DNA of 63,195 bases, filler included, from 9 parts of 9 records of this genome joined end to end with filler, not necessarily neighbours in it; one strand, 5' to 3'. Counted from the whole stretch's first letter, positions 6,002-59,981 are shown. Notes: generated by a model from the sequence alone, not told the origin. Numbers and translations are program-made.

Positions 6002-6101
6002 NNNNNNNNNNNNNNNNNNNNNNNNNNNNNNNNNNNNNNNNNNNNTTAATTAATTAANNNNNNNNNNNNNNNNNNNNNNNNNNNNNNNNNNNNNNNNNNN
6101 N
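6002..6101. other. Artificial contig spacer (44N-TTAATTAATTAA-44N)
   Basis: Six-frame stop linker. Identical copies at 13923-14022, 19849-19948, 37495-37594, 44305-44404, 47730-47829, 55861-55960 and 59861-59960. Confidence 0.99.
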
Positions 6102-8459: not shown

Positions 8460-10081
8460 ATGCGCCGCCCGGGGAAGAGTCGCTGCCTGCTCGGGCTGCT
8501 CGTCATGGCAGCCCTCGGGGCAGGGTTGCCCAGCAGCAGCGCGCCGGACTTTGGATATGCCCAGATGTTCCAGACCGAAAACCGGTCGGTGGCCGACTGG
8601 TGCACCCGGGCCCCGTCGGTGCTCCCCTCGGAGCTGGCCGGCGGCTCGTTCGTGATCCCCACGCTGGGCCAGTTCGAGATGGGCGGCCAGAAGCTCCGGG
8701 GGCTGTTTGATGCGTTCGGCAAGTTCCACCGCTTCGGGTTCGGCCCGGACCGGCGGACGGTTTGCTTCAGCTGCCGGATGATGGAGACCGGGTTCCGAAA
8801 CCAGTCGGTGGCGCTCGGCCGGGTGGCCGCTGGGAATCTGTTCTACCGGACGGTGCCGCCCCGGAACTACACTGGGATGCAAAACATCCAGGGCCCCAAC
8901 GACAATGTGTTCGTCAACACGTGCGTGCCTCGGACTTGGGTGGCCGGCTGAGCGCCCCGGGTAGGTACCGTATGGACGACGTGTACCGGTCCATCACCGA
9001 CTCGCAGGTGGGGCTGGAGTTCGACCCACGGACCCTCAGGATCCTCAAGAACATCAGCTGGGACGACAGGCTGGACAAGCCTCCCGCACCGATCACTTAT
9101 AATTCGGGCTCAGCGCACCCGCTGGTGCACACGGCGAGCGGATGTCTAATGAACGTGCATCCATCGGACATCATGTTCACCGGCTGGCTCCCAAAGGTCA
9201 CTCTGTTCAAAATCTGCCCGGGAGACCCCAACAAGCGGATCCCTGTCAATCATTTCAGACCACCGACTGGGCAACTGCCTTACTTTCATTCCTGGGGCCT
9301 GAGCCAGAAATTCGCTGTGTTCCCGCACCAGCCTTTCTCACTCAACCCGATGAAAATGGTCAAGGGCGGCACAATCGTCGACGCGTTCGAGTCCAATGAC
9401 AAGCAGAAAGCCAATGCATCTGTCTGGATGGTCCCACTGGATGGCTCTCGCGCTTTCAAAATGATCGCGCCCCAGGGCATTTTCTTCTCCCATACCCTCA
9501 ACACGTACGACACCGAGGACTCAGTTGTGATGGACATAGTCCTGTTTGGCGCCAACGCTTTTGTACAGGCTTCGGACGTTTTCTTCTACCGCAACAAGAC
9601 CGCGCGAGACTCGATGCCCAAGGACCTTCGCGGGCTGGTGACTCGAATGGAACTCAAGATTAGCGGCCCAGACCGTGGGCGAGTCACTCTGGACCCGCTC
9701 AGCTCGCAGGAGCAGGCCACGGACTTCCCCACGATCAATAGCGAGTATGCCGGCCGGCAGTACTGTATCTATTACGCCAACGAGTGGTTTCACGACGGCA
9801 AGACGTACGCAAGCATGGCGGTGGTCAAGCACAACATCTGCACCGGGGAACGGAGCTACTGGTACAAGCCCAGCCACTACCCCTCCGAGCCGAAGTTTGT
9901 AGATTCTGCTAGCAGCCACGTGGAGGACCAGGGCACTCTAATCTTTGCAGCAAGGGATGGCAGGTCGAGCAGCACGAGCCTGATCGTTCTTGATGCGGCC
10001 ACAATGGAGGAAATTTCTGCGGTTCCGGTGCCTGTGCCGCTTGGATTCACCACTCACGGAGAGTTTTACCCGAATTTGTAG
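8460..10081 (+). CDS. Carotenoid cleavage oxygenase / RPE65 family protein with signal peptide (1 intron, 8921-8964)
   Basis: GLFDAFG, four Fe-ligand His motifs (SAHP, YFHSW, FSHTLN, TTHGEF), DFPTIN and PSEPKFV. The 44-nt GT-AG intron joins the two ORFs. Confidence 0.88.
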
Positions 10082-12431: not shown

Positions 12432-13922
12432 TTATAATGTTACTGTATATTGAGACTGCATGAGTTCAATCGCGCGATCCGCATTTGCAGTCGTCAACCC
12501 GACCTTCTCGTCACATTCAACCATGTGTCCACGCATCATACCATGCAGCCGGTGGGAAGGAGGCCACGAATCGCTCTGAGGCACCAGATCCAAATCATCA
12601 ATCGCGACCCAAGCCCCCACCTTCTCACCACAGTCCTCGATATACTGTAGAATCTCCTGGTCCCTGTGGTTCTTGGAAATGATCGGCGTCTTCCCGTGCC
12701 TTGGTGCCCATCCGCGCCCAACCAGTTCTTCATCAAACCGCTGCCTCAACCCGCGGAGCATCCGCCAGGACGACGTCATCACGATCTGGGCTTGGCAGCA
12801 ATCGAGCACCCTCTTCAGCTCAACCATCGCATCTTCCCACATCGGCGCCCTCTTCCCAGCCGCCAGCACCCCATCCACGTCAAGAAACACAAGCCTCAGC
12901 CCGCCACTGGGCAGCTCTGCCTGCTTGGCGCGCTGGGCTTGGACTCTGTGCAGGTCCCGCTCAAGCTCCTTACTTTCCTGTACGGCCTCCTGCTGCTCCA
13001 TCTCCGGCGCTGCAGGCTGAGTGCTGCTTGCCTCGGGTTGAGAACCGGGCGCGAGTAACGGCAGGTGGGTGGCGGCCATTGGGTGCTCGAGTCTGCTGTA
13101 GAACGATCGGAACTGGGCCGGGACAGCGTCCTCGGTCACAGTGTCGCACAGGTCATGGGGGAGCGAGCCCGGATAGGCGCCGAACGGTGCCCGCGGCCAA
13201 GTCTGGAGGCACTTGCGCTGCATGGCCTCAAACACCTCCAGCTGCGTCATGTAATCCGGGATCGGTTTGATTTGCCACCGTTTCGCAGATAGCGCTGCAA
13301 TCGCCTGCTCTGCGGTCGCTTGATGACGATGCATGTAGTACGCGGCAGCGATCGTGCCCGAGCGCTCGGAGCCTTGCGCGCAGTGGACCAGGACCGAGCC
13401 TCCGTGCTGGTGCGCGTCGGCGATAAAATTGATTGCCGGCTGAAACGAGTGGATGATATCGCGATTGTTGCTTGCGTTCAGGTGAAGCTGCAGGTAGGAG
13501 AACGCGCCCGCGTGCTTGCACTGGAATTCCTTGGTGGTGTTCACTATGTGGGTCACGCCAATCTCCTTGAGTGCCTCGATCTGCTCGGCCTTGCTGACCC
13601 CACGCAGCAGGCAGGCTGCGGCCGCGTGGCTGCCCACCCAGAGCCCCGCGTCCACCTCCTGGCACCGGCCGCGCCGGTCCTCGCGCACTGGAGCCCGCGG
13701 CTCGGTGGCCGGCCGAACCACTGGCTGCGGATCCGCTCGGGGCGCGGGCTCAACGGTTTGCTGAAGCGCAGCGGTCGAGCCGACGCAACCGAGCGGGCCG
13801 AGCGGAGGGCTGGCCGGAGCGGCGGCCTGCTGCTCGGCCCACTTGCGGTGCAGGTGGAGTAGAGTGGGTTTGCCTGGGCAGGCGTCCACCCGGCTCTTGG
13901 GCACCCCGAGCTCGACCAGCCG
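12432..13922 (-). CDS. Dual-specificity phosphatase fused to C-terminal HAD domain (Swiss-Army-Knife HAD_SAK_2-like), 5'-partial
   Basis: VLVHCAQGSERSGT (CX5R), then FLDVDGVL, IVMTSSWR, RDQEI, WVAIDDLDL and VGLT. Confidence 0.85.
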   Translation of the reverse strand, partial: RLVELGVPKSRVDACPGKPTLLHLHRKWAEQQAAAPASPPLGPLGCVGSTAALQQTVEPAPRADPQPVVRPATEPRAPVREDRRGRCQEVDAGLWVGSHAAAACLLRGVSKAEQIEALKEIGVTHIVNTTKEFQCKHAGAFSYLQLHLNASNNRDIIHSFQPAINFIADAHQHGGSVLVHCAQGSERSGTIAAAYYMHRHQATAEQAIAALSAKRWQIKPIPDYMTQLEVFEAMQRKCLQTWPRAPFGAYPGSLPHDLCDTVTEDAVPAQFRSFYSRLEHPMAATHLPLLAPGSQPEASSTQPAAPEMEQQEAVQESKELERDLHRVQAQRAKQAELPSGGLRLVFLDVDGVLAAGKRAPMWEDAMVELKRVLDCCQAQIVMTSSWRMLRGLRQRFDEELVGRGWAPRHGKTPIISKNHRDQEILQYIEDCGEKVGAWVAIDDLDLVPQSDSWPPSHRLHGMMRGHMVECDEKVGLTTANADRAIELMQSQYTVTL

Positions 13923-14022
13923 NNNNNNNNNNNNNNNNNNNNNNNNNNNNNNNNNNNNNNNNNNNNTTAATTAATTAANNNNNNNNNNNNNNNNNNNNNN
14001 NNNNNNNNNNNNNNNNNNNNNN

Positions 14023-19743: not shown

Positions 19744-19948
19744 ACGGTTCCTGGTTGCGACAAGTGGTGATGCCGGAGCCGGCAGTACCGCAGACCGGTA
19801 ATAACGACTTTAGTATTTAGTACAGGGTTAGTCATAATTCTCCCACCTNNNNNNNNNNNNNNNNNNNNNNNNNNNNNNNNNNNNNNNNNNNNTTAATTAA
19901 TTAANNNNNNNNNNNNNNNNNNNNNNNNNNNNNNNNNNNNNNNNNNNN

Positions 19949-29979: not shown

Positions 29980-32900
29980 TCACTTGCGAAGGCTGTCTTC
30001 AATCTCCACTCGCTCCTTCTTTAGCTCGGCTGCTTTCCTATATTCGCCCGAACCGACGGCTTCCTTGATTTGGGTTTGTACCTCTTCAAGTCGGTCCTCC
30101 GGAGCAGCTGCAGCTCCGTTCTTCTGGCGCTCTTTTTGCCGCTTCCTTTGCTCTCGTCGCTTAGCACTAGTACGTTTGCCAGACTGGGTTTCCTGGTCCT
30201 GTGTAGAGCTGTTTCTGCATTCCTGTTTTGATTCCTTGTTGCTGGTGTTGACCTGCCTTTGGGGCACAGGATGCGGAGCTGCTGGCGCTGGCAAAGGAAT
30301 CGCAACAGAATTGAGCTGTCGCTTCGACTCGGCTGCATCTTGCCGCGCGTCATTCACTTCAGAGGGGCCTAGCAACGTATCTGTGCTGATCAATGGTTTC
30401 TTCTTCTTCTTCTTCTTCTTGGACTTTGGCTTCTGATCTGGGTCAGTCTTGCTATCTTGCTCTTGGCTTGTGGTAGGCTCAGCCGTTGGCAGCGGCAGGC
30501 TCTGCTGCTTCACTTTCTGCTTCTTTTTGCCTGCTTTGTCCTTAGCCTTCACAGCCGGCCCCACACTGCTAGAGTTGGTATGATGAGCTAAGACGACCGT
30601 GCCACTTCCTTTCTTTGCGGGTTGAAATGTCAATTCAGAGCTGAACAGCTTGCACAGCCCCTGGACGCCACCCTGTTGCTTCAGAGTGAGACGAGCCGTC
30701 GGGTGCCTGCCAGCACAGACCAGCCTCAGTCAGGCTAGGCTATTGCTCGAGCTACCGCGTATAGAGCTCAGTGCATAACACAGAGTTGTCCATCTTGCAA
30801 TTCCCGCTATGTAACAATTCGACCATCCAGTCTCTCACTTCTCGTACAGATGCCGCCGATTGCTTGGCTTTGGCATCAGGCTGCTTGGTCAGGGATTTTC
30901 CAGCCGCAGATTGGCTACTCTTCGGTACAGGAATGTCAGGTTGCGGTGCAAGCTGGCTGCTACTATCTGCTCCAGGCCTGAACGGTGGAGCAGCCGCATT
31001 AAAGATAATACTCTGTGAAGTTTCTTGGTGCTTCTTTCTGGATTGCGCCACCCGGGCGACTCTAGCAGGAGCGTCCCGCGCAACCAGGGCGACGCTCTTT
31101 TGGTGCGCTGTAGACCTTGCCACTGCGGTCGGTTTGCGACTGGCGTTTGCAATGGGCAACGATATGACGCGAGACCTATGATCAAAGGAGAACGACTGGG
31201 GAAGCTGGCTACACAATGCTTCGAGACCCCCTATGCGTTCTAGTAGAGCGTGGTTCTTGGCAGACTGCTTTTTGAGCAGCTCCTTCTTGCATTGGGCCTC
31301 GGTGGCCCGACCACGCTTAGCGTTGAGAAAATCCATGAGTTGGTTAACAAGAGGCCAAAATAGTTTCATTCCCACTGCCGATCGCTGCGGAGGAGCTCCA
31401 TTTGATCTTGATGGCTGTTTGCTCGCGCCGTGGCTTGGCATAGGAACAGCATTGCCGCCCTCATTGTGCTGCAGTCTCGGGTTCTGATATACATCGGGTA
31501 GCAAATCTTCCCAAGACTGCTGTAGGGCCTCCTGGTCGTGAGGAGTTGAATCGCAGCACTGCATCAACAAAGCATCGAGTTCTTCGCGCAGCTTTCGGTC
31601 AGCCCTGAATTCTTCTGTAGCTCTAAGCTTGTCGCATATCTCTTCGGCAGCCTCGTAACAAGCCATATCTAACGAGCACTCAAGCCACTCTGGCGCCTCA
31701 TATCCAACACACAACAAGGCCACAGCGGCCCAGTCTGGCCCTGGTAAAACTGTGAGTTGCTCTACAAGCACCATTCCTTCATTCATTTGAAGCCCAGTGT
31801 TATACACAGCGTAGACTCCGTTACGGCAACTGGTGGTATCGATCGCAACCTTCATCAACGAGCATTCGTCCTTCACTATCTGCACCAACATGGGTCATGG
31901 ACTACTGCACCAGCATGGGCAATGAAAATTAATACTAAATACACGCGCTACCGCTGAGAATTTCGCTTTTTTTCTTTCGTTGTTGTGCCACCCTTGCCAA
32001 TCAAAGCCCATCCTCACAGCTAGCTTTGCTTCGAGGCAGTTCTCTTCGCACGGCCAATCTGCCTCACCGGCCGCCCCAGCCTCGCTGGATGGTGGCAGCA
32101 GTAGCACCAGCGCTGGCCTGCCCTTCTCCCGCCGCCTTCGACGACCATGTGCTGCCGCCAGCAATAGCCGGGCCCCAAGCGGCTGGTCGGCCACCAGAGC
32201 GGATGCGCTGCAAGTGGCGATCTGTTCCGGTTCAGAGTGCTCGAATTGGATATGAACAGTACGCGGCTTATCCTTCGAGCCGCCACGATGGTTCCAGCTT
32301 GTACCGAACTCCTTCTGTAGCATTGGCTTTACCTGCTGAACAAGGTTGTGCTGCTCTGACACGAAGTCAAGCTTGGCTGAGCTCTCGGATGAGTTCAGTA
32401 CCAATGCAGCCAGCGACCAACTGCATCCAAGCATCTTCTTGTGCACTTCTTTCATGTAGCCGCACTGCAGCTGCAGCGCGCACCAAGGCTGGCCTCGAAA
32501 CATCTGCTGCTCCCTTTGGGCCTTGCCCAGACCGAGCTGCTCAACAACTGCATCGATGCTCTCTACAGAATGCTTGATGAACACAGCGAGTTGTCCTTCA
32601 GAGCCCTTTCTGAAATAGAGTAAAGCTGCTACTTCCGGCTCAATCTCCCTCACAAGACCTTCAACGAGCATGATAGCATGTTTCCAATCTTTCAGTCGTG
32701 GTTTGACAGAGACAAGTGACTCAACAACCCTTGGCACAGAGACGCACCAAGAGACACAGCTAGGCATCAGCGCTCTGAGTTGAGATTCGTTGACTCCAGG
32801 CTTAGCTGCGTCAATTGGAGAGAGTTCTGCTGTGCGATCTGGCAGTTCGCTTTTGCGGTGGCTCTTAGGCGCAGTTGCTTTCAGCAAGTGCCCCGGATTC

Positions 32901-35900
32901 GCCCATAGCAGCATGCAACGGAGCACTGCAAGCCTCGAGCTGCTCGGGCTGTTGAAGCCGGTCGGGTCCGGCACCTTGTTACCGTTGCAAAGAGCTGTGC
33001 CAATCTGACGCTGGAGACCCGCTACAGTCTTCTCAAAATCCTCAAGGCGCGACTTGAGAAGCCCATGGCGGTCGCACCAACTAGACCGAACACGGAAGTG
33101 CACTGATGTCTGCTTCATCTCGATCCATGCACAGTACAGCCTAAGCATCATGAGTGGTTCCGAATAAAACCCGGAGTCCAGACGAGCTCGGCCAGTGACA
33201 TGGCGACTAATTATAGAATGATAGTCATCTGGGTCGGTATGGAACAACGGTGAAGCGATTCTAAAGGGCATCCTCGGTTGAGTCATCGCTGCTGCCATCA
33301 CAACTGCGTCTGGCAGACACTCGAGCCGGACAGCAAAGCACAGCATTCGAGTCAAGTGTAGATCGATTGGAAGCGTAGCTGCCACCGTCCCAATCTTCGT
33401 TGGCTGGCCTTCGTCTGAGGGCTCTGTGATCATTCCGGCGCTGAATAAAGATTCAAAGGCCCGATCGACGTGTCTCTCGTCAGGAGGTTCCAACAGTTCG
33501 CTTAGCATTGTCGCTACTGGTCCCTCCAGCATCACTTTTAGCCGCAGCAAAGTGGTCCCAAGCGGTTGCCGGTGAATCTCAGACGTCTCATGCTCCGGCT
33601 GTGCGTCGTATAGCCTTCGGCTGTATAATCTAAACACTGTTCCAGGCCTCACACGGCCTGTCCGCCCTGCCCGCTGTGTGGCGGAGGCTTTGCTGATCAT
33701 TGCCTTCTTGAGGCACGCTTTGTCATTTAGATGGTCGTACTGCACTTGTTTGTGCGTACCTAGACAGATTACAATATCAACATCAGGCAGCGTCACGCTG
33801 GATTCAGCTGCGTTGGTAGCAATGATCACTTTGACCTCGCCTGCTGCTGGCGGCTCCCACGCCTCCAACTGCTCTTCAAATGGAATGTCGCTGTGTATCG
33901 CGATGCACTTGTACATCTGTGCTGACTCGAGCTGTCCGAACCTCTCAAACAACTCCATGATGTCTTCCATCCCTGGAACAAATACCAGCACAGCAGAGCC
34001 CCCGTGCATTTGATTCTCGAGGCACTGGGTGATGAGCAGCACCAGATCATGCTGCATCGAGCTGAGCTTGGACAATGCGTCCTTCCCGGCCCCGACTTGC
34101 TCACAACACGACTGGCACTGTGCCACTGCTCGCTGAAAGAACCGACCAGCGTTTTCAAAAGTTTCTGGAAGCTCTTCTGTGTAAATAATCTGCACTGGAA
34201 ACCGCCTTGCCCCGACAAACAGGCCATTCCCTGGGCTAAAACTCTCGAAGTAATCAGCATAGAGCTTGACATGCAGCGTTGCCGACATCAAGATCACCCT
34301 AATGTGAGAATACGTATCAAGCAATCGCCTCACCAAATAACATAATACGTCACTGTCGATGCTCCTCTCATGGACCTCGTCGATAATCAAGTGTGAGTGT
34401 GACGCAAATTCCTCCGGATGGTGGGCCAGCAGTCGGACCAAGTATCCCGTAGTGACGAACCAAATCCGTGTCGCCGAGCTCTCATCCCTCACATGCCCAC
34501 CCATCCGCATCCCCATCACCGGACCCATGCCAAGCCCGTCTCGCGTGTACTTGAGTAGCCCATGAGCAGCGATACGGCGCGGCTGGGCCACAAACATCTT
34601 AGCCACCCGACCGCCGGTCTCGAGAGAGTTTTGGTAAAGAAACAGCGGCAATCGAGAAGATTTTCCACAGCCTGTCTCGCCAGAGATGATTGTCACACGG
34701 TGGGATCGAACGTGCTCAATGATCTGGTCTCGGTTCTCCTCAATCGGGAGCTTAGCGTCTGCCAGATCAACAGGGACTGGCTGCTCAGGCACCGGCATAG
34801 GCGACAACGCTGCGATCAGCGGTGTGGGAGCCGGAGTGACAAGAGGGCCGGCGGTGGCAAACGGGCGCAGTATTGGCAAGATGAGTCGCAGGGATTCCTC
34901 AGCCGGCTCAGGAAGCAGGAGCTGACTGTTGGCGTCGAGCCGCTGCAGGAGCAAGCCATTGTACAGCTTCTGCGGCTCCAGGAGCGGGACGTGTCCTTCG
35001 AGTCGAAGCAGCTGTACAATGCTCCGGATTTGCTTCAGCGCTGCTTGGAACCAGAGCTGGACTTCAAGAAGCCTCAGCCGAGGCGGTCCTGGGAGCTCTG
35101 AGTCTCCAATGAGCGTGGCCGGAGTAGATTCCTGCCCGGACAGCACAGCGGCCATTCTGCAGAGGTCAGAGAGCTCCTTTGTCGTCATACTGACATCCCT
35201 GCTCGTCAGCAGGAAGCGCAAGGCGAGGACTGTGCATTTGAGCGGAGCAGGCACGGTCGCTATATGGTCCCAAAGTGTGCCCGATGCAGTACACAACAAC
35301 GCGGTGCGGCTCTCCACTGGGCACCGCCGGGCTTGCAGCAAGTCCAGCGACCCAGATGCAGCAACAGTGACCGTTGTGACTGCCTCTGAGTCGTCCCAGT
35401 CCCTCACGTATTCTGTAACCGAAGCAGCCCCCAGCAGCCCATAGCACACAGCGCGGAGCGGCCTGGTGACAGCATCCGATCCGGGCTCCGATGCCAGCCT
35501 GCTCGAGCCCCAGAACTGGTGGTTACAGTGCACAGCCAACGAGAAGCGCGGGAGCGACTGCGAGCACATCTCGGCCCTGATCAGCTGCTCCAGCTCTGTT
35601 TCAGCCGGGGCCGGCGGAGCTAGTGTCCGACTGTAAAACTGGTCCGATTCCTGCACTGCGCGCTCGAACTCTGGGTGGGCCTCGAGCAGCTGCTGCCAGC
35701 GCTCCGAGGCCTCCAGGGGCTCTTCGATCGCCCGGAGCCAATCTGCTACTGCAGTGACCGCAGCGCTGCTCGACGGCGGCAGCCCGAGCTCGCTGTGGAC
35801 AGCCTGCACCGCGTGCTTGGTGAGGTCGTTCCCGCACAGCGCCGCGAGCGCCGGGAGCATCGGCAGCGGCAGTTCGAGCGCCGCGGCCAGCTCTTGTGGG

Positions 35901-36550
35901 CTGATTAGCGTGCCAGAGACCTGGTCCTCCTCGAGCTCCAGGCTGCTGATCGGAATGTACACCGAGCCCTGCGCACACGCTGCTGAGCCCAGGCCTGGCC
36001 CGGGAGGCACCGTAATCACCGCAAAGTCGCTATCCTGGGAGAGCACCGCGTATCCGCCCACGGCGTGGCAGGCGTCTACCAGAGCTCCGTCTGCCTCGCT
36101 GGCGGTCACCAGCACATCAACCCCACGCGCGACCAGGCTGGCCGAGACCTGCTCCATGGCCAGCTCCGGCAGGTCCGCCCGCAGCCCGGCCGCCCCGAGC
36201 CCCGCGCACCAGCGCTCCAGCCCGGCTGAGTCCCGGAGCCTTTCCTCGAACCGAGCCACCCACTCCGAATGCTTTCCGCCGGCGTCGGTCCCGCGGGAGG
36301 GGTCTGCGAAGCAGCACAGCGTGATCCCCGCGGCCGCTAGTTTGTCCACCAGCGCGGCAGTGGCCTCGGCCAGCTGCTCGTACTGCCCGCCCAGCACCGC
36401 CACCTCGGCCCGCGGGGTGGCCCTCCGAGCCAGCCAGTGCATCAGGTTGGACAGATCGCACAGCAGCGTGCGCGGGGCTTCAGGGCTGAACGCCACGCTC
36501 GTCCCCACCCCATGCTCCCGGCACCAGCTGTCCAGGCCCTTGACCCCCAT
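29980..36550 (-). CDS. ~2135-aa fusion: Asteroid/FAM120-like XPG-PIN nuclease + DEAH/RHA (DExH) RNA helicase + two LOTUS/OST-HTH-like domains + UVR motif
   Basis: PIN: MGVKGL, CDLSN, FAD, EAD, SQDSDF, LCGND. Helicase: GETGCGKS, QPRRIAA, DEVHER, MSAT, ATNAAESSVT, QRAGRTGR, HA2. GT-AG introns 35969-36010, 31880-31951 and 30707-30755 join three ORFs in frame (6408 nt spliced). Confidence 0.85.
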
Positions 36551-37010
36551 TGCAACAAAGCTGCGGCGTGCTCGGCACGACTTCAAAGAGACTTCAAAGC
36601 ATCAGGGGATCGTGGTGCATTCAACTCCCTCGACCGCGCGCGGCGAGCTCGAGCTGGGCCATGTGAAAGAATCCGATCTTGTCCCGCTGTAGTTCGGCGG
36701 CGAGAGTTGAGCACAATCATAACATATCGTGATCGTGAGCAGTCTTGAGCTCGACATCCGGACGATGAATCGATGAATTCGATTCGTCGGTCCGGCGTCG
36801 TCGATCGCGGAACTAGTAACAACGAGATCTAGAGGGAGCATCATGTGCCATCTCACCATGTGAGAGCCCGCAGAACTCGGGCACAACGAAATCCTCTCGA
36901 TGCACAATCTCATCGACACAATCGATCAGGCAGGTGCCAAAGTCGTCAGCGGTCCTTGTTGACTGGTCGTCTCCGCGCTTGAACAGGCAGAGGCGCGTGG
37001 TGTCCGAACG

Positions 37011-37494: not shown

Positions 37495-37722
37495 NNNNNN
37501 NNNNNNNNNNNNNNNNNNNNNNNNNNNNNNNNNNNNNNTTAATTAATTAANNNNNNNNNNNNNNNNNNNNNNNNNNNNNNNNNNNNNNNNNNNNTTTTGG
37601 CCAATTGTGGCTCGGTTTTCAGAAATCGTGTTAATTGACAGCTGCAGACTTGATGGAAGTCAAGATGGGATACTGGCGATCCGGGATAGATCCGGGGACG
37701 GAGTGACCTAGAGTGAGCGCGC

Positions 37723-38175
37723 ATGCTGCGCATCACGGGAGCCCGGGGACTGTGCGCCGGGCGGGAGTACGTGCACCGGCCATCGGGGCTGTGTTGGCTG
37801 GACATTGAGCTGGGCCGGGGCACGGCGCTGTCGACGGGGGATGTGGTGCAGGTGCACTACACTGGCCGACTGCATGCCAACGGGATGAAGCTGGACTCGA
37901 GCCACGACCGTGGCAAGCCGATCAGCTTCACACTCGGGGCCAGCCGGATGAAGGGCAGCATGAACTGGAAGTGCCCACCACTGCTGCGGGGCTGGGACGA
38001 AGGGATCGCCGGGATGCGGGTGGGCGGAAAACGCGAGCTGCTGATCCCGCCAGAGCTGGCGCACGGAGACCGCCGGTGTGGTCCGATCCCAGCCGGGGCC
38101 ACGCTGGCTTACGTTTGCGAGCTAGTGGACGCACAACCGCCGCCAAAGAGTTGGTTTGCATCGCTGCTCGGATGA
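37723..38175 (+). CDS. FKBP-type peptidyl-prolyl isomerase
   Basis: VQVHYTGRL, DSSHDRGKPISFTLG, GWDEGIAGMRVGGKRELLIPPELA and IPAGATL. Confidence 0.95.
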   Translation: MLRITGARGLCAGREYVHRPSGLCWLDIELGRGTALSTGDVVQVHYTGRLHANGMKLDSSHDRGKPISFTLGASRMKGSMNWKCPPLLRGWDEGIAGMRVGGKRELLIPPELAHGDRRCGPIPAGATLAYVCELVDAQPPPKSWFASLLG

Positions 38176-38437
38176 GTAGAATGCGCCACGGTGCTACCAC
38201 GGTACTACCACGGTGCTTCATCAGCCATCATGAGGGTATCACGAGGGGAGCTTTATGTGTGAAACACAGGCCCATTTTCATTTACTGATATCCTTACCTG
38301 CCCTACACGATTCTATCCTAACCTATCCTTGACTACGTACGTACTGCGTACTGTACGTATACTCATAACTAAAGTTGAGTTTGATGGAACTAAATTATAA
38401 ATGTAGTTTGATGGAATTTAGGTGTGTACACGGAAGG

Positions 38438-41023
38438 CTATATAATGTCCTTAAATGGTTTGGGAAACGGCAGTAATGCGAGTCGAGCCCGCGAGGTTAT
38501 GTCTGAGTCCGAGAGGCTCGACTCAAACGAATTCCCACTCCCAGTGCATCCAAACTTAGAAGCAGGTACAGCATTTCCATAATCGGAGTGTATCGTGTTG
38601 TTGAACACGGCAGTGGACACCTCATTGCACCAGACAGCTGGTGTTTCACGCATGATAATTGTGGCGTTATAGACATACGTATGGGCCCCGCCACCGGCCC
38701 AGCCGGTACCGATCTGCTTGGGGTACGCGTGCACACTGCCCACATGATAAAGCCAATTTCCATGGACCATCGCTGAGTTGATCACCACCATGCCGTAGAC
38801 CATATAATTATTGGTCATCAGGTAACGCGAGCTGCCGTCATCTGTCTGCATTGCAGAGAACGAGTTGTAGTTAGCTAGAATGAAATTGTGTTCCAGCCGT
38901 CTGTACCGACCAATCACACTGCCAGCAGCAGCAGGTCGAAACCCGGGTGTGGCCCCATTGAGAATCTCGGACAGACTCGGAGTCTCGTTGGAAGTGGGGT
39001 CCGGGGCTAGTCCATCGTCTGTGATGTATGGAGCTCTTTCCCACGCATTGATCGGCCCCTGCTCAGCGGTTTCGCGGTTATGGTTGAAAATCAGATTGCC
39101 TCTGAGCACATCACCACCGCCGAACGCCTCGTTGAAATTTACGGCTGCTCGGGGTGTGTTGAAAAATATGTTCGACTCGAGAATAGTTGCAGCCACAAGT
39201 TGCTGCGCCCAGCAGCTGCTCTGCTTCTGCCAGATCCCGATCTCCCGCACCAAGTTCCCAGCAACCAACGTGCCACGAGGCTGGTTACCCGACCTGCCGT
39301 CCGGCCCGACCTCACCGGGGAGTCTGACACTGCAATTAGCATACAGGCAACTGCTGGTTGAACCAAAAGCGACCATGGCGCTCTCTCCCAGAAAGCTAAA
39401 CTCGTTCCGTACGAATGAAGTGTTGCGAGCGTAGTTGTTGAGGCTGATGGCATTGCCGTCAATTCTGGTGAACTCGCAATCTTCTATCCTACAGTTCTCG
39501 ACGCCTCCAAGTGTGACAGCTCCGGATCGCGACACTGCCCAGTCCCCGGCCGAGGCAAGATACTGCACGTCTGCCGGACTGTTGCCGAGATAGGTGAGGG
39601 CCGTGTCACGCAGTGTGAGCCCGCGCAGCACAAAGTTTCGGACTGGCGCCGACATCGTGCCCGAAATATTGAACAGGATCTTGGTATTGGTCAGCGCGAG
39701 CTGCTCCCGGCCTGATGGCCTCTCAGAGCTGTTGAAGGTGTAATAGAGTGCCTGCTCTTCCTGATCATGGAAATATTCGTTCGGCGCGTCGCACTCTTCT
39801 TTCACGTCCTCAACAAACCAATCCCACGCAGCCCCGGAGGCAGTAGTGGGTCCGCCTTGGTCGCAGCCCACAGAGGGGCTGAACTGGACTGTCTTGCTCT
39901 GGGTATCCACGTGGTCTACCAGACACATGTAGGAAAAATACGGGTTAGTGCCCCCACGGGCGTGGAACACAGCGCCACTCGCGTTATGGTATGTGGCAGC
40001 CTGCGGCAGGCTGTTGTTTGATTCATATAGAAAGCCACCGGGTGGATTGTATGCGGGCTGGGCCCCGTGCTGACTCCTGGGACACGAGGTCGAGCACCAA
40101 TAGCCGTAGTCCGGGGTGCGTCCCGAGCAGATCCCGCCCTGCGCATGGAACCAGGCCCCGTACCCGCCGGCGCCCTGCATCATCATCCCGGGCTCTCCGA
40201 ACTCCTGCCACACCACTCCAGGCCAGTCGGACGGCCGCGCCCAATACTCCGTCGTCTCGTTCGGTGGCTGGTGCGCCCGTGCAAAGTATGCCGGGATGCG
40301 CATCGACCGGCCCGACCCGGGGACGTACCGGCCGGGGCCGTACGGCACATTCTGGTTGTCACAATATGAGGCTGTGGTCTCGGGGTCGCCGTTCGGATAC
40401 TTTGCTCGAATCGCCCGCAGCCGTCCAACCCGCAGCCCCGCCCCCTTGGGCAGCTGCTGGCCACTGAGGTCGAGCCGCCACGTGTTGGTGCTCGCGTTGT
40501 GCAGCGACCAGGCCTGCAGGCTCACCTTCACCGGCACCGCGCCCGAGATGACCGCGTGCTCCCCTGGAAAGTTCTGAACCGTTAGGTCCGAGCTGCGCAC
40601 CAACAGCGTCTCACGCACATAGTACACCCCCCCGCGCAGCACTACCGTCTTGGCCCCCGCCAGCGCACTCGCAGCGGCCACAGCCCGCTCCAGCGAGGCG
40701 AATGGCCGCTCCACTGACCCGTCGCCGTCGGGGCTGGCCGCTGGGTCCGCGTACAGCACGGCGCTGCCGGGCGGCGGCGGATCCCGGGGCGGGTCGAACG
40801 AGTCGTTGCTGGGCGGGGCGGGCAACCCGCAAGCCTCGAGCTGCAGGGCGTCGAAGACGGTGCGGAACTGGGCCCGGGCGGGCATGGTGGCTTTGGCGAA
40901 CTCCCAGGCGTGCTGCCGGGAGGCGCAGTCGAACGATCGGCTCACGTTGGCCGGGGTCCCGGGGTACCGCAGCCCGGCGGCCCACGCAGTCCCCAGCACT
41001 AGCTGCGCCAGCACCCACAGCAT
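38438..41023 (-). CDS. Secreted right-handed parallel beta-helix (pectin-lyase-fold) protein
   Basis: Signal peptide at ATG 41023, DGSVERPFASL, LRGGVYY, RAKYPN, and PbH1 repeats (NCRIEDCEF, NLVREIGIWQKQS). The ORF-track extension upstream is antisense to the next gene. Confidence 0.8.
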   Translation of the reverse strand: MLWVLAQLVLGTAWAAGLRYPGTPANVSRSFDCASRQHAWEFAKATMPARAQFRTVFDALQLEACGLPAPPSNDSFDPPRDPPPPGSAVLYADPAASPDGDGSVERPFASLERAVAAASALAGAKTVVLRGGVYYVRETLLVRSSDLTVQNFPGEHAVISGAVPVKVSLQAWSLHNASTNTWRLDLSGQQLPKGAGLRVGRLRAIRAKYPNGDPETTASYCDNQNVPYGPGRYVPGSGRSMRIPAYFARAHQPPNETTEYWARPSDWPGVVWQEFGEPGMMMQGAGGYGAWFHAQGGICSGRTPDYGYWCSTSCPRSQHGAQPAYNPPGGFLYESNNSLPQAATYHNASGAVFHARGGTNPYFSYMCLVDHVDTQSKTVQFSPSVGCDQGGPTTASGAAWDWFVEDVKEECDAPNEYFHDQEEQALYYTFNSSERPSGREQLALTNTKILFNISGTMSAPVRNFVLRGLTLRDTALTYLGNSPADVQYLASAGDWAVSRSGAVTLGGVENCRIEDCEFTRIDGNAISLNNYARNTSFVRNEFSFLGESAMVAFGSTSSCLYANCSVRLPGEVGPDGRSGNQPRGTLVAGNLVREIGIWQKQSSCWAQQLVAATILESNIFFNTPRAAVNFNEAFGGGDVLRGNLIFNHNRETAEQGPINAWERAPYITDDGLAPDPTSNETPSLSEILNGATPGFRPAAAGSVIGRYRRLEHNFILANYNSFSAMQTDDGSSRYLMTNNYMVYGMVVINSAMVHGNWLYHVGSVHAYPKQIGTGWAGGGAHTYVYNATIIMRETPAVWCNEVSTAVFNNTIHSDYGNAVPASKFGCTGSGNSFESSLSDSDITSRARLALLPFPKPFKDII

Positions 41024-41180
41024 GCTTTGGGTGAGCCCGCAGCCTGGTCGGCCTACCGTTACCGGAATAACGGCGGGTCTCAAATGTGGATTGATCGTGT
41101 GGTCCACGATTGTGGACGACTGAACTGGCTGTTCGACACTGCGAATCGCCACGTGTTGAGTGGATCGAAACCACAGCAAC

Positions 41181-43090
41181 ATGCCGCGCTGGCTGGCTCG
41201 TCTGGTAGTGAGCCGCTCCGGGGGGCGGGGATTCCGCACGCTATCCGGCAGCCCCGTCACCAAAGCCCCCACCACCCAGTCTGGCGCCTCGACATCCACC
41301 CAGGCCGCTCCAGCCGCTCGAGTGTCCCAGCAGCCGATCCGCAGCAAGCCGGTGCCGCCGATGGCCAAATCCACCCGGCTGCGCAAGTCGCCCTTCTTCG
41401 AGAAGACGCTCCAGCACGGTCCGGCCTCACCGCGGGCCGCGGGGCCGAGCCGATCGGTCAGGCGTCGAGGACTTCACCGTGTACAACCGGATGCTCATGC
41501 CGCTCACCTTCGGCGACACCGACAAGGAGTACAGGGCGCTCACCGAAGACGTGGCCATCTGGGACGTCGGGGCCGAGCGCCAGGTGCAGTCTGGTCTACC
41601 GGTGGCGCGAGCGGCCAGTAGGTCGAACTGTCTGGGCCGGACGCGGCGGACCTCTGCCAGCTGCTCACCTGCCGCGACCTGTCCAACATGAAGGTAGCCA
41701 GCCAGCTGCTGGCCAGAAGTGACAGGGCGGTCAGGATGGCACTTGCCGGTACGCCATTATGTGCGACGACGACGGGATCGTGCTGAACGACCCTGTGCTG
41801 CTCAAGCTGAGCGACGACCAATACTGGTTCTCTCTGGCCGACTCGGATGCGCTGCTCTGGTGCTATCTCGGCCGGGGCACTCGGGCGAGCCGGCGGGCAG
41901 GTGCCAGGCACAGGCCCGGGCGCGCGGGTACGATGTCAAGGTGCACGAGCCTGACGTTTCGCCGCTCGCTCTGCAGGTCTCCGGCGACAGCGGCAGCGCT
42001 GAGCGATCGACAGGGCCCCAAGTCTGTGCCGCTGCTCAAAGAGCTGTTCGGGGAGGATCTGGTGGAGGATATTAAATACTTTCACTTCCGGAATGTCGAG
42101 CTCGATGGGATCCCGATCCTGCTCGCCAGATCCGGCTGGTCACCCGAGATCGGGTGCAGGCTCGCCGTGATGGCGTGCTGAGCCGGCTGCAGTTACGAGC
42201 TGTACCTCAGAGACGGCAAGCAGGGCAGCAAGCTGTGGGATATTGTGTGGGACGCCGGCGAGAAGTATGGCATCACACCTGGCTGCCCGAACCACCAGAG
42301 GCGGATTGAAGGAGGGATGCTCTCGTTCGGAGGCGACACGATGCCCGACACCAACGCGCTCGAGCTCGGTGCGGTGCTGGATTTGGGCTGGTCGATCGGT
42401 CTGGCAGGGCTGCCGAAGCGGTTTGTGGATCCTTTCAAGGGGCACGAGTTCATCGGGAAGCAGGCGCTCCAGAGGATAGCGGAGGAAGGCGTGAAGCGCA
42501 AGTTCATCGGGATCAAGTTCGACAACCATTTCCCGATCGACGACACCCTCTGGCGCGGCACGCTCCAGCCGGTGCATCTGTGCGGCGGCGAGCATTCCCA
42601 GCATCTGCATGAGGAGCTCAGCAAAGCCGAGGCTGATAAAGCCGAGTGAGCAGCGCTGCTGTCGTGTGAGCTGATCGTGGCGGACAGGGCTGTGGAGAGC
42701 GAAGATTTCCTGAACGCGGCGCTGCTGCACCAGCAGTGCGCCAATCTCAAGCAGCAGCTGGATGAGCTCACCACCAAGATGGCGGAAGTTGGCTCTCTGA
42801 CTGTGATTGCCTATTCGCCCCGATTCGAGCGCAACCTTGGTCTGTGCTCCCCCTAGCCACGGCTGACCCGACCGGCTGCAGGGCTTGCGATTGTGAGCTC
42901 GGATCTGAACCACGGCGATCGAGTGGTTGCCAGTATGGCTTCAGGAAAGCTTTTCTCTGGAACTGTGAGCAAGCTGCCGTTCCCTGATACAGTCGACGAG
43001 AACAACCAGCCGGTCAACATCTTCCCTCAGTCGGTGCGACAGCTCAATACGTATGGAGGGTACCAGAGCGAGGGCATAGCTTCTACCTGA
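41181..43090 (+). CDS. DmdA-like (DMSP demethylase-like) GcvT-family aminomethyltransferase, 9 introns, with N-terminal transit-peptide-like extension
   Basis: Spliced protein: STRLRKSPF, TVYNRMLMP, IWDVGAERQVELSGPDA, LTCRDLS, NDPVLLKL, SLADSD, QGPKS, ARSGWS..GYE, PGCPN..RIEGGMLSFG, YSPRF. Introns: 41419-41461, 41584-41621, 41694-41734, 41860-41900, 41977-42013, 42154-42192, 42369-42407, 42646-42687, 42840-42881. Confidence 0.85.
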
Positions 43091-43548
43091 CGACTCTATG
43101 CGAGATCAGCGTTCAGGTCAGAGTGCTGTGGTTTCTAGTTGTCCGCCTAGTTGAGTTCGTACGTCCGGATTACTAGTCTATACGGTAGTTTCAAGCATTC
43201 TGCGATGCACGCGCGTAATACAGGTTCTGGACAGGATGAAAGTTAGAGTGTTAACCATGTAGGCGCCCGGATCACCTAACATTAATTTTATACCGCGCGC
43301 TCTCTAGTCTCTATGTTTACGACCATGAGCGACCGTCCTCCGGTATGGTCGTAAAGGTAGTCCATCGATCTGACTGCATATCCGCCGGACGGAGGCAAGA
43401 TCGCCACCACTGCTCCAGTAGGCTGAGATGTGAGATGAAGTCACCATCGCATGCCAACCTAAAATTAAAACTGGACTCACAGCAGACTCAGCTGAACTCA
43501 GTCTGTAGAGGAATACCAAATCCGTTATCATAACGTGCGTCCATCGGG

Positions 43549-44304
43549 ATGCTGTTGATGCTGTTGGCTGCTGTGGGGCGGTGGCTGCTCCCATTCGGGC
43601 TGCTTGTATTGTCCCAGCAGGCGGAGGTCAGTGCGCAGCAGCAGCCCTACGTATGGCCGCTGCCGCAGCAGCTCAGCGCCTCACTGTCGTCATCACCATC
43701 CGTCCTCAGCCCGGACATCACACTCATGCCTCGAGGGAACGCAAATGACGTCACCGCCTCAGCGATTGCCCGTTATGGCCCGATCCTTCGCGACCTCACC
43801 AGCAAGGCCACGAACGGCACGGCCGTTGTAGACACTGTCAATATCTACGTCGATCCCACAACAGACACCGCTATCCTCAGCCTCTCGACGCCGTACAATT
43901 ATTCGCTCTCTCTTGGAGAGGGCACAAGCAGCATCCAACTCCGCGCAGCCTCGCGCTTCGGCGTGGCCCATGGGCTGGAGACGCTGGCCCAACTTTACGC
44001 CCGCAACCAGCCCTCGCGGTTCAGCAGCTTTGGTGTGCTCGACGGCCCGGTGTATCCATACCGTGCGCTCATGATCGACTGCGGCAGACGGTTTGTGCCG
44101 ATTCCGACCCTGGAGGAAACCATTGACGGGATGGCTGCGGCAAAGATGTCCGTGCTGAACCTGCATGCCTCTGAGTATGGCTTCTTTAGAGTTGAGGTCA
44201 AAGCGTTCCCTGAGCTGACCGCAGGGCTAGGGTCTGCCTTCTACCAACAGCAGCAGATCCGGCAGCTGATCCGCTATGCCTACCTCCGCGGGATTCGTGT
44301 GATC
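43549..44304 (+). CDS. Beta-hexosaminidase (GH20), 3'-partial
   Basis: Signal peptide, VWPLPQ, HGLETLAQL, YPYRALMIDCGRRF, IDGMAAAKMSVLNLH and YAYLRGIRVI. Confidence 0.92.
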
Positions 44305-44404
44305 NNNNNNNNNNNNNNNNNNNNNNNNNNNNNNNNNNNNNNNNNNNNTTAATTAATTAANNNNNNNNNNNNNNNNNNNNNNNNNNNNNNNNNNNNNNNN
44401 NNNN

Positions 44405-47729: not shown

Positions 47730-47829
47730 NNNNNNNNNNNNNNNNNNNNNNNNNNNNNNNNNNNNNNNNNNNNTTAATTAATTAANNNNNNNNNNNNNNN
47801 NNNNNNNNNNNNNNNNNNNNNNNNNNNNN

Positions 47830-55860: not shown

Positions 55861-55960
55861 NNNNNNNNNNNNNNNNNNNNNNNNNNNNNNNNNNNNNNNN
55901 NNNNTTAATTAATTAANNNNNNNNNNNNNNNNNNNNNNNNNNNNNNNNNNNNNNNNNNNN

Positions 55961-59860: not shown

Positions 59861-59981
59861 NNNNNNNNNNNNNNNNNNNNNNNNNNNNNNNNNNNNNNNN
59901 NNNNTTAATTAATTAANNNNNNNNNNNNNNNNNNNNNNNNNNNNNNNNNNNNNNNNNNNNCCCCCCCCCCCCCCCCCCCCC

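Follow-up and report, generated by a model that had tools for sequence, protein, structure and literature searches.

We analysed a DNA stretch of 63,195 nucleotides (nt), here called the window, and found that its positions 41181-43090 hold a transcribed and spliced eukaryotic gene for a relative of DmdA, the bacterial enzyme that demethylates dimethylsulfoniopropionate (DMSP). The protein has the fold of the GcvT superfamily and lies in a eukaryote-only clade that is related to the DmdA lineage without being a member of it. We hold with moderate confidence that it is a mitochondrial, tetrahydrofolate (THF)-dependent one-carbon (C1) transferase, which would demethylate a small methylated compound and feed the organellar folate pool. 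The kind of enzyme, DmdA-type and of the GcvT superfamily, is already known; what is new is a DmdA-like family specific to eukaryotes. An earlier note on this DNA had proposed that the host may have domesticated a DmdA, with the caveat that the protein might instead represent a sister clade with another substrate. That caveat is the better-supported reading of the two.

A gene with nine small introns

Translation of 41181-43090 in three frames showed a coding sense that switches frame at short GT..AG stretches. Removing nine such introns of 37-43 nt yields one frame of 1548 nt and 515 codons, from an ATG at 41181 to a TGA at 43088-43090, and both the splice model and the RNA joints bear out this part of the earlier note. 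An in-frame stop lies just upstream of exon 1, where the stop-to-stop frame begins at 41160. The intron phases are, in order, 1, 0, 0, 2, 0, 2, 1, 2 and 1, and the GC content is 0.71 in introns against 0.62 in exons. An open frame alone is little proof of such a model, because a minimal path with five introns also leaves the frame open; that path was refuted by RNA joints and homology.

A search of sequencing runs returned 20 rows with part of the stretch. The rows, 18 of them registered as RNA, come from 13 studies and are all of marine, seawater or estuary origin. RNA contigs from four marine runs (X1-X4) of three studies were aligned to the window. The four runs gave at least 10 contigs, and 9 of the 10 that were aligned are at least 99% identical to it. 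Exact RNA joints were found across introns 1, 2, 3 and 4 (X1), 6 (X2), 8 (X1 and X3) and 9 (X2, X3 and X4). In the homologue alignment, six transcript-derived homologues are gapless at all nine junctions, and the spliced protein matches one transcript-derived homologue, P0001, with 617 bits (E 4e-187).

All parts of the gene lie on the plus strand, and all its introns are bounded by GT and AG. Exon 1 (41181-41418) carries the start codon and, in residues 1-65 (41181-41375), an acid-free Arg/Ser/Thr/Ala-rich extension with the motif R-G-F-R-T-L-S-G; this extension is transcribed, as an RNA contig covers 41178-41328. Intron 1 (41419-41461; 43 nt, phase 1) is skipped by an X1 contig with a side of 97. 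Exon 2 (41462-41583) encodes YNRMLMP and WDVGAERQ, and is followed by intron 2 (41584-41621; 38 nt, phase 0; X1, side 49), exon 3 (41622-41693) with TCRDLS, and intron 3 (41694-41734; 41 nt, phase 0; X1, side 50). Exon 4 (41735-41859) encodes NDPVLLKL and SLADSD. At intron 4 (41860-41900; 41 nt, phase 2) an X1 contig skips 41 nt with a short side of 26, recorded as 'between: not known', and the homologue alignment is gapless there. Exon 5 (41901-41976) is defined by the spliced frame and the homologue alignment. Intron 5 (41977-42013; 37 nt, phase 0) was deduced from frame and homology: its junction, between PLALQ and GPKS, is gapless against six homologues, and its retention would shift the frame, because it is 37 nt long.

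Exon 6 (42014-42153) runs from QGPKS to ARSGWSPEIG and contains loop 1 in its ancestral form 'E.GYE'. It is separated by intron 6 (42154-42192; 39 nt, phase 2; X2, side 23) from exon 7 (42193-42368), with PGCPNHQRRIE, which holds loop 2 in the ancestral form 'RRIE', and NALELG. Intron 7 (42369-42407; 39 nt, phase 1) is in frame and free of stops, so that read-through is possible; its 13 codons fall in a gap of the P. ubique DmdA structure 3tfh and of the six homologues. An X3 contig aligned from 42407 onwards carries 15 loose letters in front, identical to 42353-42367 at the end of exon 7; this side is too short for a listed joint. Exon 8 (42408-42645) is supported by the spliced frame and RNA contigs. 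Intron 8 (42646-42687; 42 nt, phase 2) has an in-frame TGA and is skipped by X1 and X3 contigs (sides 142 and 127). It splits a lineage-specific insert (42635-42778) of 34 residues (393-426), Glu/Gln/Leu-rich and predicted to be helical, which is transcribed and spliced and is absent from the six aligned homologues; its match to the UVR motif is weak (19.3 bits, below the cut-off of 21.5). The C-terminal barrel begins in exon 9 (42688-42839), with YSPRF. Intron 9 (42840-42881; 42 nt, phase 1) is skipped by X2, X3 and X4 contigs (sides 58, 124 and 151), and the coding part of exon 10 (42882-43090) ends in the TGA. RNA contigs extend to 43175, giving a 3' untranslated region of at least 85 nt.

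Seven introns of the confirmed gene model thus have listed RNA joints, an eighth (intron 7) has the loose end, and for intron 5 the support is frame and homology only. The junctions proposed in the earlier note have RNA support for these eight; the absence of contig cover over intron 5 in the four runs does not count against it. The eukaryotic nature of the gene rests on this spliced RNA, and not on genes of other pieces of the window.

An introner-like origin of the nine introns was considered and rejected. Their mean pair score was 4.56, against -0.55 when shuffled (0 of 200 shuffles reached it), but the best pair scored only 12 over about 40 nt, as shared splice signals would give.

DmdA is the nearest solved relative

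We scanned seven stretches of the gene (single exons, plus exons 7-8 read through intron 7) with profiles. NF009133 ('DMSP demethylase') was the best NCBIfam family in four of the seven, with 68, 40, 46 and 33 bits (exon 2 alone 40.1, exon 4 46.2, exon 6 32.8). The sum over these four, three single exons and exons 7-8 through intron 7, is 187 bits, against a cut-off of 410. The closest homologues, which serve as a proxy for the spliced protein, score 317-360 bits, also below the cut-off. P0001 scores 345 bits on NF009133, compared with 94.9 on TIGR00528 (cut-off 235.85) and 143.8 on NF001567 (cut-off 300). The 410-bit cut-off was tried as a test of function and discarded, as it tracks the roseobacter type: none of 31 Pelagibacteraceae genomes passes, compared with 11 of 31 Rhodobacteraceae (537-692 bits). 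The GcvT folate-binding domain PF01571 was found exon by exon, at 20.2 bits on exon 4 and above its cut-off of 25.6 on exon 6 (27.5 bits). PF08669 was not detected in the Pfam scan of the window's short exons; the closest homologues carry both domains in their precomputed annotation.

Searches against solved structures agreed. For a 150-residue piece of the window's protein, the sole sequence match in the PDB was 3tfh, the P. ubique DmdA (E 1e-10). P0001, the closest full-length relative and 66% identical to the window's protein, gave 264 bits to 3tfh, 104.5 to GcvT (1woo) and 86 to trimethylamine N-oxide demethylase (Tdm). An AlphaFold2 model of P0001 (pLDDT 75.9) had 3tfh as its top Foldseek match (E 3e-39, template modelling (TM) score 0.86, 34% identity), with GcvTs next in the list at 0.81-0.83. 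The protein therefore has the GcvT-superfamily fold with DmdA as its nearest solved relative, by sequence and by fold, in line with the earlier note. All eleven DmdA motifs listed in that note are present in the spliced protein. In 3tfh, nine of the eleven occur letter for letter; PGCPN is also there as written, and S.RLR.SP occurs only as S.RLR.TP.

Being nearer to DmdA than to GcvT, DMGDH or Tdm holds for this protein, but it does not discriminate, as uncharacterised paralogues behave likewise. We take the DmdA references to be P. ubique SAR11_0246 (PDB 3tfh, 3tfi and 3tfj) and R. pomeroyi SPO1913, with clades A-E. The window's protein is 44% identical to a roseobacter DmdA orthologue, 50% to an Acidimicrobiales DmdA in the wide sense (sensu lato), 47% to the non-DmdA paralogue P0022 and 22% to GcvT. 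The roseobacter orthologue, of clade A (L118), was compared over 360 columns; it scores 682 bits on NF009133 and has an acuI-like open reading frame (ORF) downstream. According to passages of PMC10746254, functional SAR92 DmdAs are only 35-40% identical to ratified DmdAs, and a look-alike at 21-24% identity is inactive. Identity alone would thus admit the window's protein as a dmdA product, and would admit the uncharacterised paralogues equally. The sources label its relatives only 'aminomethyltransferase' or 'glycine cleavage system T', and the protein atlas entries for P0001 are bacterial GcvT clusters only.

Two loops set the protein apart from the DmdA lineage

Two loop signatures were defined in this analysis from 198 rows and the window. 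In the window's protein loop 1 reads S-P-E-I-G-Y-E and loop 2 reads Q-R-R-I-E. A derived form of loop 1, x-Q-x-G-[FYW]-E, occurs in 14 of 23 rows of the DmdA core, 60 of 73 of DmdA sensu lato and all 7 of a SAR11 type of 378 residues (81 of 103 in all). The ancestral form, x-E-x-G-[FYW]-E, is carried by 30 of 34 rows of the eukaryotic clade, 50 of 59 non-DmdA paralogues and both GcvTs. Loop 2 behaves in the same manner: derived [ED]-R-[IVLM]-E in 16/23, 60/73 and 7/7 rows of the three DmdA groups (83/103 together), and ancestral [RKL]-R-[IVLM]-E in 32/34 eukaryotic rows, 47/59 paralogues and 2/2 GcvTs. The eukaryotic clade, window included, has the derived state in neither loop (0 of 34), whereas 3tfh has it in both. 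Among DmdA rows the ancestral state is absent for loop 1 and present in one DmdA-core row for loop 2. The departures of SGWSPEIGYE and PNHQRRIE from canonical DmdA, on which the earlier caveat was built, are therefore real, and these two loops are the key discriminators. As judged by them, the DmdA lineage is a derived group that excludes the window's protein. Shared ancestral states do not define a clade.

We also compared conserved columns. The DmdA core has 90 conserved columns. Of these, 44 are universal, being conserved in paralogues too, and the window's subclade keeps 43 of these, including the ADSD and G[YF]E motifs of the folate site. Seventeen columns separate the DmdA core from the paralogues; the subclade has the core residue in 7 of them, and three residues invariant in the core, His, Gln and Pro, are missing from it at window residues 105, 111 and 152. 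An aromatic residue 'W171' and folate-contact Ser, Glu and Tyr are cited for DmdA in a passage of PMC7487153. The features S-G-W, A-D-S-D and G-Y-E-L-Y of the window's protein would correspond to them. As a discriminator 'W171' was rejected, since non-DmdA paralogues have Trp at this place and roseobacter DmdA has Tyr. A further difference from other rows is N-A-L-E-L-G: [NTS]-P-x-E is present somewhere in the protein in 127 of 164 other rows, whereas N-[AS]-[LMF]-E-[LV]-G occurs in 21 of the 34 rows of the window's clade.

The clade lies outside the DmdA core

Trees were rooted on two canonical GcvTs that adjoin gcvP. Their DmdA core was anchored by roseobacter orthologues only. In a FastTree of 199 rows, the window's clade of 34 rows (support 97) joins the SAR11 378-residue type and a 96-row group, 'DmdA sensu lato', at 91; this last group contains the roseobacter DmdAs. 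In an IQ-TREE of 78 rows (LG+C20), all bacterial rows are united (99); the eukaryote-like ones branch off as a basal grade beside the GcvT root, with an inner subclade of 11 rows around the window's protein supported at 98. In a second IQ-TREE of 50 rows under the same model, the eukaryote-like rows form one clade (99), whose sister group is the non-DmdA paralogues (97), a relation to bacterial non-DmdA aminomethyltransferases (AMTs) that is not seen in the other two trees. The DmdA core clade has support values of 100, 99 and 93 (inner node 98), and the window's clade lies outside it in all three. A long branch parts GcvT from the whole DmdA-like group in every tree.

These results indicate that the protein belongs to a eukaryote-only clade, related to the DmdA lineage and not part of it. 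A domesticated DmdA is not supported in the form first proposed, given the place of the clade in all three trees, closest homologues below 410 bits and non-DmdA states in both loops. The expectation that the protein would group with neither canonical GcvT nor a paralogue clade was borne out for GcvT (long branch, 22% identity), but in the 50-row tree it is sister to the non-DmdA paralogues.

A presequence-like N-terminal extension

Bacterial proteins begin at R-L-R-K-S-P-F. The window's protein has 65 residues ahead of the conserved RLRKSPF; among them are 10 Arg/Lys and no Asp/Glu, Ser/Thr/Ala make up 38%, and the first acidic residue of the protein is at position 74. The Arg/Ser/Ala-rich, acid-free, presequence-like extension described in the earlier note is therefore present, and it fits a putative mitochondrial presequence. 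Comparable basic extensions are found in homologues P0005-P0008, P0010, P0012, P0013, P0151 and P0424-P0443. A motif R-x-F-R-T-L-[RS]-G, with variants, lies near the end of the extension (window 41229-41252) and also in P0005-P0008; it or its variants recur in a dozen more (P0424-P0427, P0429-P0435, P0437 and P0439). Its recurrence speaks for a common descent of the extension and for constraint on it, as expected of a processed presequence, and the motif is possibly a conserved processing site.

A second eukaryotic subclade (P0458, P0466 and P0470; from MMETSP and JGI) starts with M-G-S-x-Q-S, which is myristoylation-like, followed by a long acidic Pro/Ser-rich extension. The location of its members may differ from that of the window's protein.

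Relatives in eukaryotes and bacteria

Protein searches and an exhaustive search of representatives gave homologues of 370-530 residues on short transcript-like contigs and in EukProt (three clusters), MMETSP and Tara. JGI and other metagenomes gave intronless members on contigs of 4-33 kb with a GC content of 0.35-0.63 (L131-L137). Their contig neighbours are exportin-like (Xpo1), XPG, MSH6-like MutS, RCC1/ankyrin and WASH-complex genes, and neighbours of those kinds mark the contigs as eukaryotic nuclear. Members of the window's clade were met only on eukaryotic contigs and in transcripts. That the gene belongs to the host and is not bacterial contamination, as first argued from its introns, is upheld by the spliced RNA contigs and by homologues adjoining Xpo1, XPG, MSH6-like and RCC1 genes. 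Within the family the window's gene is unusual in having nine tiny introns and the 34-residue insert, homologues on other eukaryotic contigs being intronless.

Among prokaryotes, 185,579 species genomes were searched and the best 80 of 569 relative loci were taken. All 80 are bacterial (marine Acidimicrobiales, Rhodospirillales, SAR116, SUP05/Thioglobus, Planktomarina and Pelagibacteraceae) and 39-49% identical to P0001; in the FastTree, the window's clade contains no named bacterial locus from these best 80 of 569. The genes around the nearest bacterial relatives (TauD, P450, hydrolase, DNA alkylation repair, subtilase, SCO1 and PGM) gave no hint of a substrate.

Likeness to known systems was considered in turn. 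The protein resembles DmdA in being a stand-alone enzyme of about 370 residues with a three-domain GcvT fold, in most of the listed motifs and in its best solved match. It differs from DmdA in that its gene is eukaryotic and has introns, in its 65-residue N-terminal extension and 34-residue insert, and in its loops, which in DmdA read S-K-Q-G-G-[YF]-E (here S-P-E-x-G-Y-E) and I-E-R-I-E (here Q-R-R-I-E). Bacterial DmdA-like AMTs share with it the ancestral state of both loops, 43-47% identity, and NF009133 as best family with scores under the cut-off (372-387 bits); in contrast they are bacterial and presequence-free, and they also score well on Tdm and GcvT models. This likeness names no function. 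Passages of the literature describe SAR11_1265 and SAR11_1303 as 'AMT of unknown function' (Sun et al. 2011, PMC3160333) and a 'non-DmdA clade' of bacterial DmdA-like proteins (PMC7487153).

Folate domains of the GcvT type in DMGDH/SARDH, DMGO, heterotetrameric sarcosine oxidase and Tdm are the next-best PDB and NCBIfam matches. The folate domains of DMGDH/SARDH-type enzymes capture the C1 unit from an N-methyl compound, and these enzymes are mitochondrial in animals. In each of them the folate domain is joined to an oxidase, dehydrogenase or metal domain, whereas the window's protein stands alone, and no fusion partner was found on its 6.7-kb contig. The aryl O-demethylases LigM and DesA resemble it in a THF-dependent, redox-neutral methyl transfer on a GcvT-like fold, but they are distant (43-51 bits on NF047633; TM score 0.57-0.61 under either length normalisation).

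Discussion

In the account that we favour, a nuclear gene of a marine eukaryote would supply a stand-alone, three-domain enzyme of the GcvT superfamily, which would most likely be imported into mitochondria by means of the 65-residue presequence. In the organelle it would most likely bind THF and take a C1 unit from a small methylated compound; the unit, which could be methyl, aminomethyl or at the formaldehyde level, would enter the mitochondrial C1 pool. The chemistry may be like that of DmdA, yielding methyl-THF, or like that of the folate domains of DMGDH, SARDH and Tdm, yielding methylene-THF. Since GcvT and uncharacterised bacterial DmdA-like AMTs have the same ancestral states in the two active-site loops, the substrate may differ from, or be broader than, DMSP. 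The mitochondrial location, the folate dependence, the catalytic activity and the class of substrate are what we infer from the composite of these features.

Several points weigh against this mitochondrial C1 transferase. Regarding location, the extension did not pass a test for an amphipathic helix at significance (moment 0.51, shuffle mean 0.38, reached by 117 of 1000 shuffles), and a plastid transit peptide of an alga with a primary plastid would fit an Arg/Ser/Thr-rich, acid-free extension equally well. Regarding substrate, it is by inference only that the two loops would decide substrate or mechanism. The deep position of the clade is also unstable, as by tree it joins DmdA sensu lato (91), sits at the base near the GcvT root or pairs with non-DmdA paralogues (97). 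Finally, an approximately unbiased (AU) test does not reject a single clade made up of the eukaryotic clade and the DmdA core (delta lnL 5.57, p-AU 0.355), and it therefore leaves room for a DMSP-specific function.

A true DMSP demethylase is the strongest of the other explanations, although we consider it unlikely. Here the protein would convert DMSP and THF to methylmercaptopropionate (MMPA) and 5-methyl-THF in mitochondria, with generic enzymes of the beta-oxidation type performing the DmdB, DmdC and DmdD steps, and passages of PMC5395565 describe DmdB and DmdC as broad-specificity. It would agree with 3tfh as closest solved relative by sequence and fold, with NF009133 as top NCBIfam family and with the AU result (p 0.355). 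The 44% identity to a roseobacter DmdA orthologue compares well with the 35-40% of functional SAR92 DmdAs (PMC10746254, in the passages cited above), but overall likeness to an uncharacterised non-DmdA paralogue is similar (47%, P0022). Among the 17 separating columns, 7 have the DmdA-core residue and 10 do not, with the core's His, Gln and Pro lacking at the three places named above. None of the 34 clade members has either derived loop, the states seen in P. ubique, roseobacter and most DmdA sensu lato proteins, and the clade stays outside the DmdA core in three of three trees. The scores of the closest homologues (317-360 against 410 bits) count weakly, since all 31 Pelagibacteraceae genomes fail that cut-off too. 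It is similarly doubtful, in our estimate, that several marine eukaryote lineages share a mitochondrial THF-dependent demethylase for DMSP, taken up or ingested, or for a similarly abundant methylated osmolyte.

A folate-binding protein of the GcvT fold with a non-catalytic or regulatory role, like PDPR or IBA57/YgfZ, appears quite improbable. IBA57 and YgfZ are among the fold matches, but their TM scores, normalised by model length, are 0.41-0.51 against 0.73 for DmdA. Furthermore, 43 of the 44 universal columns of the catalytic family are kept, and purifying conservation is strong across a clade whose GC content spans 0.35-0.63.

GcvT, the AMT of glycine cleavage, is mitochondrial in eukaryotes. 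A divergent housekeeping T-protein of the mitochondrial glycine cleavage system would share the fold, the folate site, a mitochondrial-type presequence and the GcvT-like ancestral loops, and databases name relatives 'aminomethyltransferase' or 'glycine cleavage system T'. Against this stand 22% identity to the two canonical GcvTs adjoining gcvP, the long branch between GcvT and the DmdA-like group in all trees, and the scores of homologue P0001, which lie under both GcvT cut-offs (94.9 on TIGR00528 and 143.8 on NF001567) while NF009133 gives 345; we regard this explanation as very improbable. An artefact, be it a gene of bacterial origin in a contaminated bin or a frame that is open by chance, is of negligible probability: joining nine contigs makes binning errors possible in principle, but it is already refuted by RNA contigs from poly-A/oligo-dT and other marine libraries that remove the introns exactly, by the 617-bit match to a transcript-derived homologue and by homologues on contigs with eukaryotic hallmark genes.

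In the sea, demethylation is regarded as the main sink of DMSP and as a bacterial process. A passage of a 2017 review finds 'no indication' of a DMSP demethylation pathway in phytoplankton (PMC5395565), and the passages of 2026 papers on eukaryotic DMSP catabolism list only Alma lyases (PMC13310141, PMC13280387 and PMC13360808). In the literature found, as judged by titles, abstracts and passages, no eukaryotic DmdA homologue is described. If the enzyme were a eukaryotic demethylase of DMSP or another osmolyte, it would bring eukaryotes into the marine sulfur or methyl cycle at the entry of its demethylation branch. A conserved, expressed relative of DmdA with a putative presequence is a concrete candidate for this role, and bears on the use of methylated osmolytes by eukaryotes as a source of C1 units or sulfur. 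Even with a substrate other than DMSP, the two loop signatures provide a simple sequence test that tells the DmdA lineage from look-alikes. Some homology surveys use cut-offs of about 40% identity (PMC13310141). At 44% identity to a roseobacter DmdA orthologue, transcripts of this family could therefore be mislabelled as bacterial dmdA in such surveys.

Bacterial DmdA-like genes in the samples

In the Rhodobacteraceae sample, most dmdA loci over the NF009133 cut-off have an acuI-like ORF downstream. Downstream of the roseobacter dmdA orthologues L117-L123 (650-692 bits), at no more than about 100 nt, lies a 330-residue ORF that starts M-F-N/K-A-L. The arrangement fits the dmdA-acuI pair mentioned in a passage of PMC5395565. 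In the Pelagibacteraceae sample, none of the 31 genomes has an NF009133 match over the cut-off, and 27 of the 31 match it at E <= 1e-90, mostly with frames of about 378-386 residues and 346-354 bits. Each excised ORF is a 378-residue DmdA-like protein with 280 bits to 3tfh, and in four loci (L083, L088, L113 and L115) it lies directly downstream of a 447-residue paralogue. P. ubique-type DmdA, at more than 50% identity to 3tfh, was not met among the sequences gathered: P0233, P0248, P0148, P0190, P0016 and the SAR11 378-residue protein score 277-317 bits on 3tfh, none of them close.

A non-DmdA paralogue type of about 380 residues (L084, L086, L109 and P0022) shows more than 72% identity between Halomonas and Pelagibacterales proteins, with 84 rows merged at 72%, and Planktomarina, Pseudothioglobus and SAR11 members stand on short branches beside it in the tree. 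It has the look of a marine catabolic gene with a wide distribution.

The contig and the other pieces of the window

The window consists of nine contigs strung together by eight artificial spacers, each N44 + TTAATTAATTAA + N44, at 6002-6101, 13923-14022, 19849-19948, 37495-37594, 44305-44404, 47730-47829, 55861-55960 and 59861-59960. Because of this, synteny across spacers is not real, and ORFs that reach a spacer are cut genes. The contig with the DmdA-like gene spans 37595-44304 (6,710 nt), with a spacer on both sides. Its only other genes are an 862-residue ORF on the minus strand (38438-41026), without a Pfam match, and the N-terminal part, 257 codons, of a GH20 hexosaminidase gene on the plus strand (43534-44304). 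Operon logic does not apply to eukaryotes. Introns are spread unevenly along this contig, with nine in the 1.9 kb of the DmdA-like gene and none apparent in the roughly 3.3 kb of open frame formed by the 862-residue ORF and the first 257 codons of the GH20 gene.

Genes on the other pieces are tied to this contig by binning alone. The C-terminal third of an axonemal dynein heavy chain is encoded at 3-2501 on the plus strand, which argues that the bin comes from a flagellate; the best named matches of this fragment are 38-46% identical and the best unnamed one 52%. Other pieces carry, among others, a carotenoid oxygenase of the RPE65 type (8711-10081, plus strand), a protein with DSPc and a HAD 'Swiss Army Knife' phosphatase domain (12432-13922, minus strand), a 1568-residue DEAD/Helicase_C protein (31895-36601, minus strand) and an MFS transporter. 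The last piece opens with at least 15 C (59961-59975), which is probably an artefact of assembly or of a library end.

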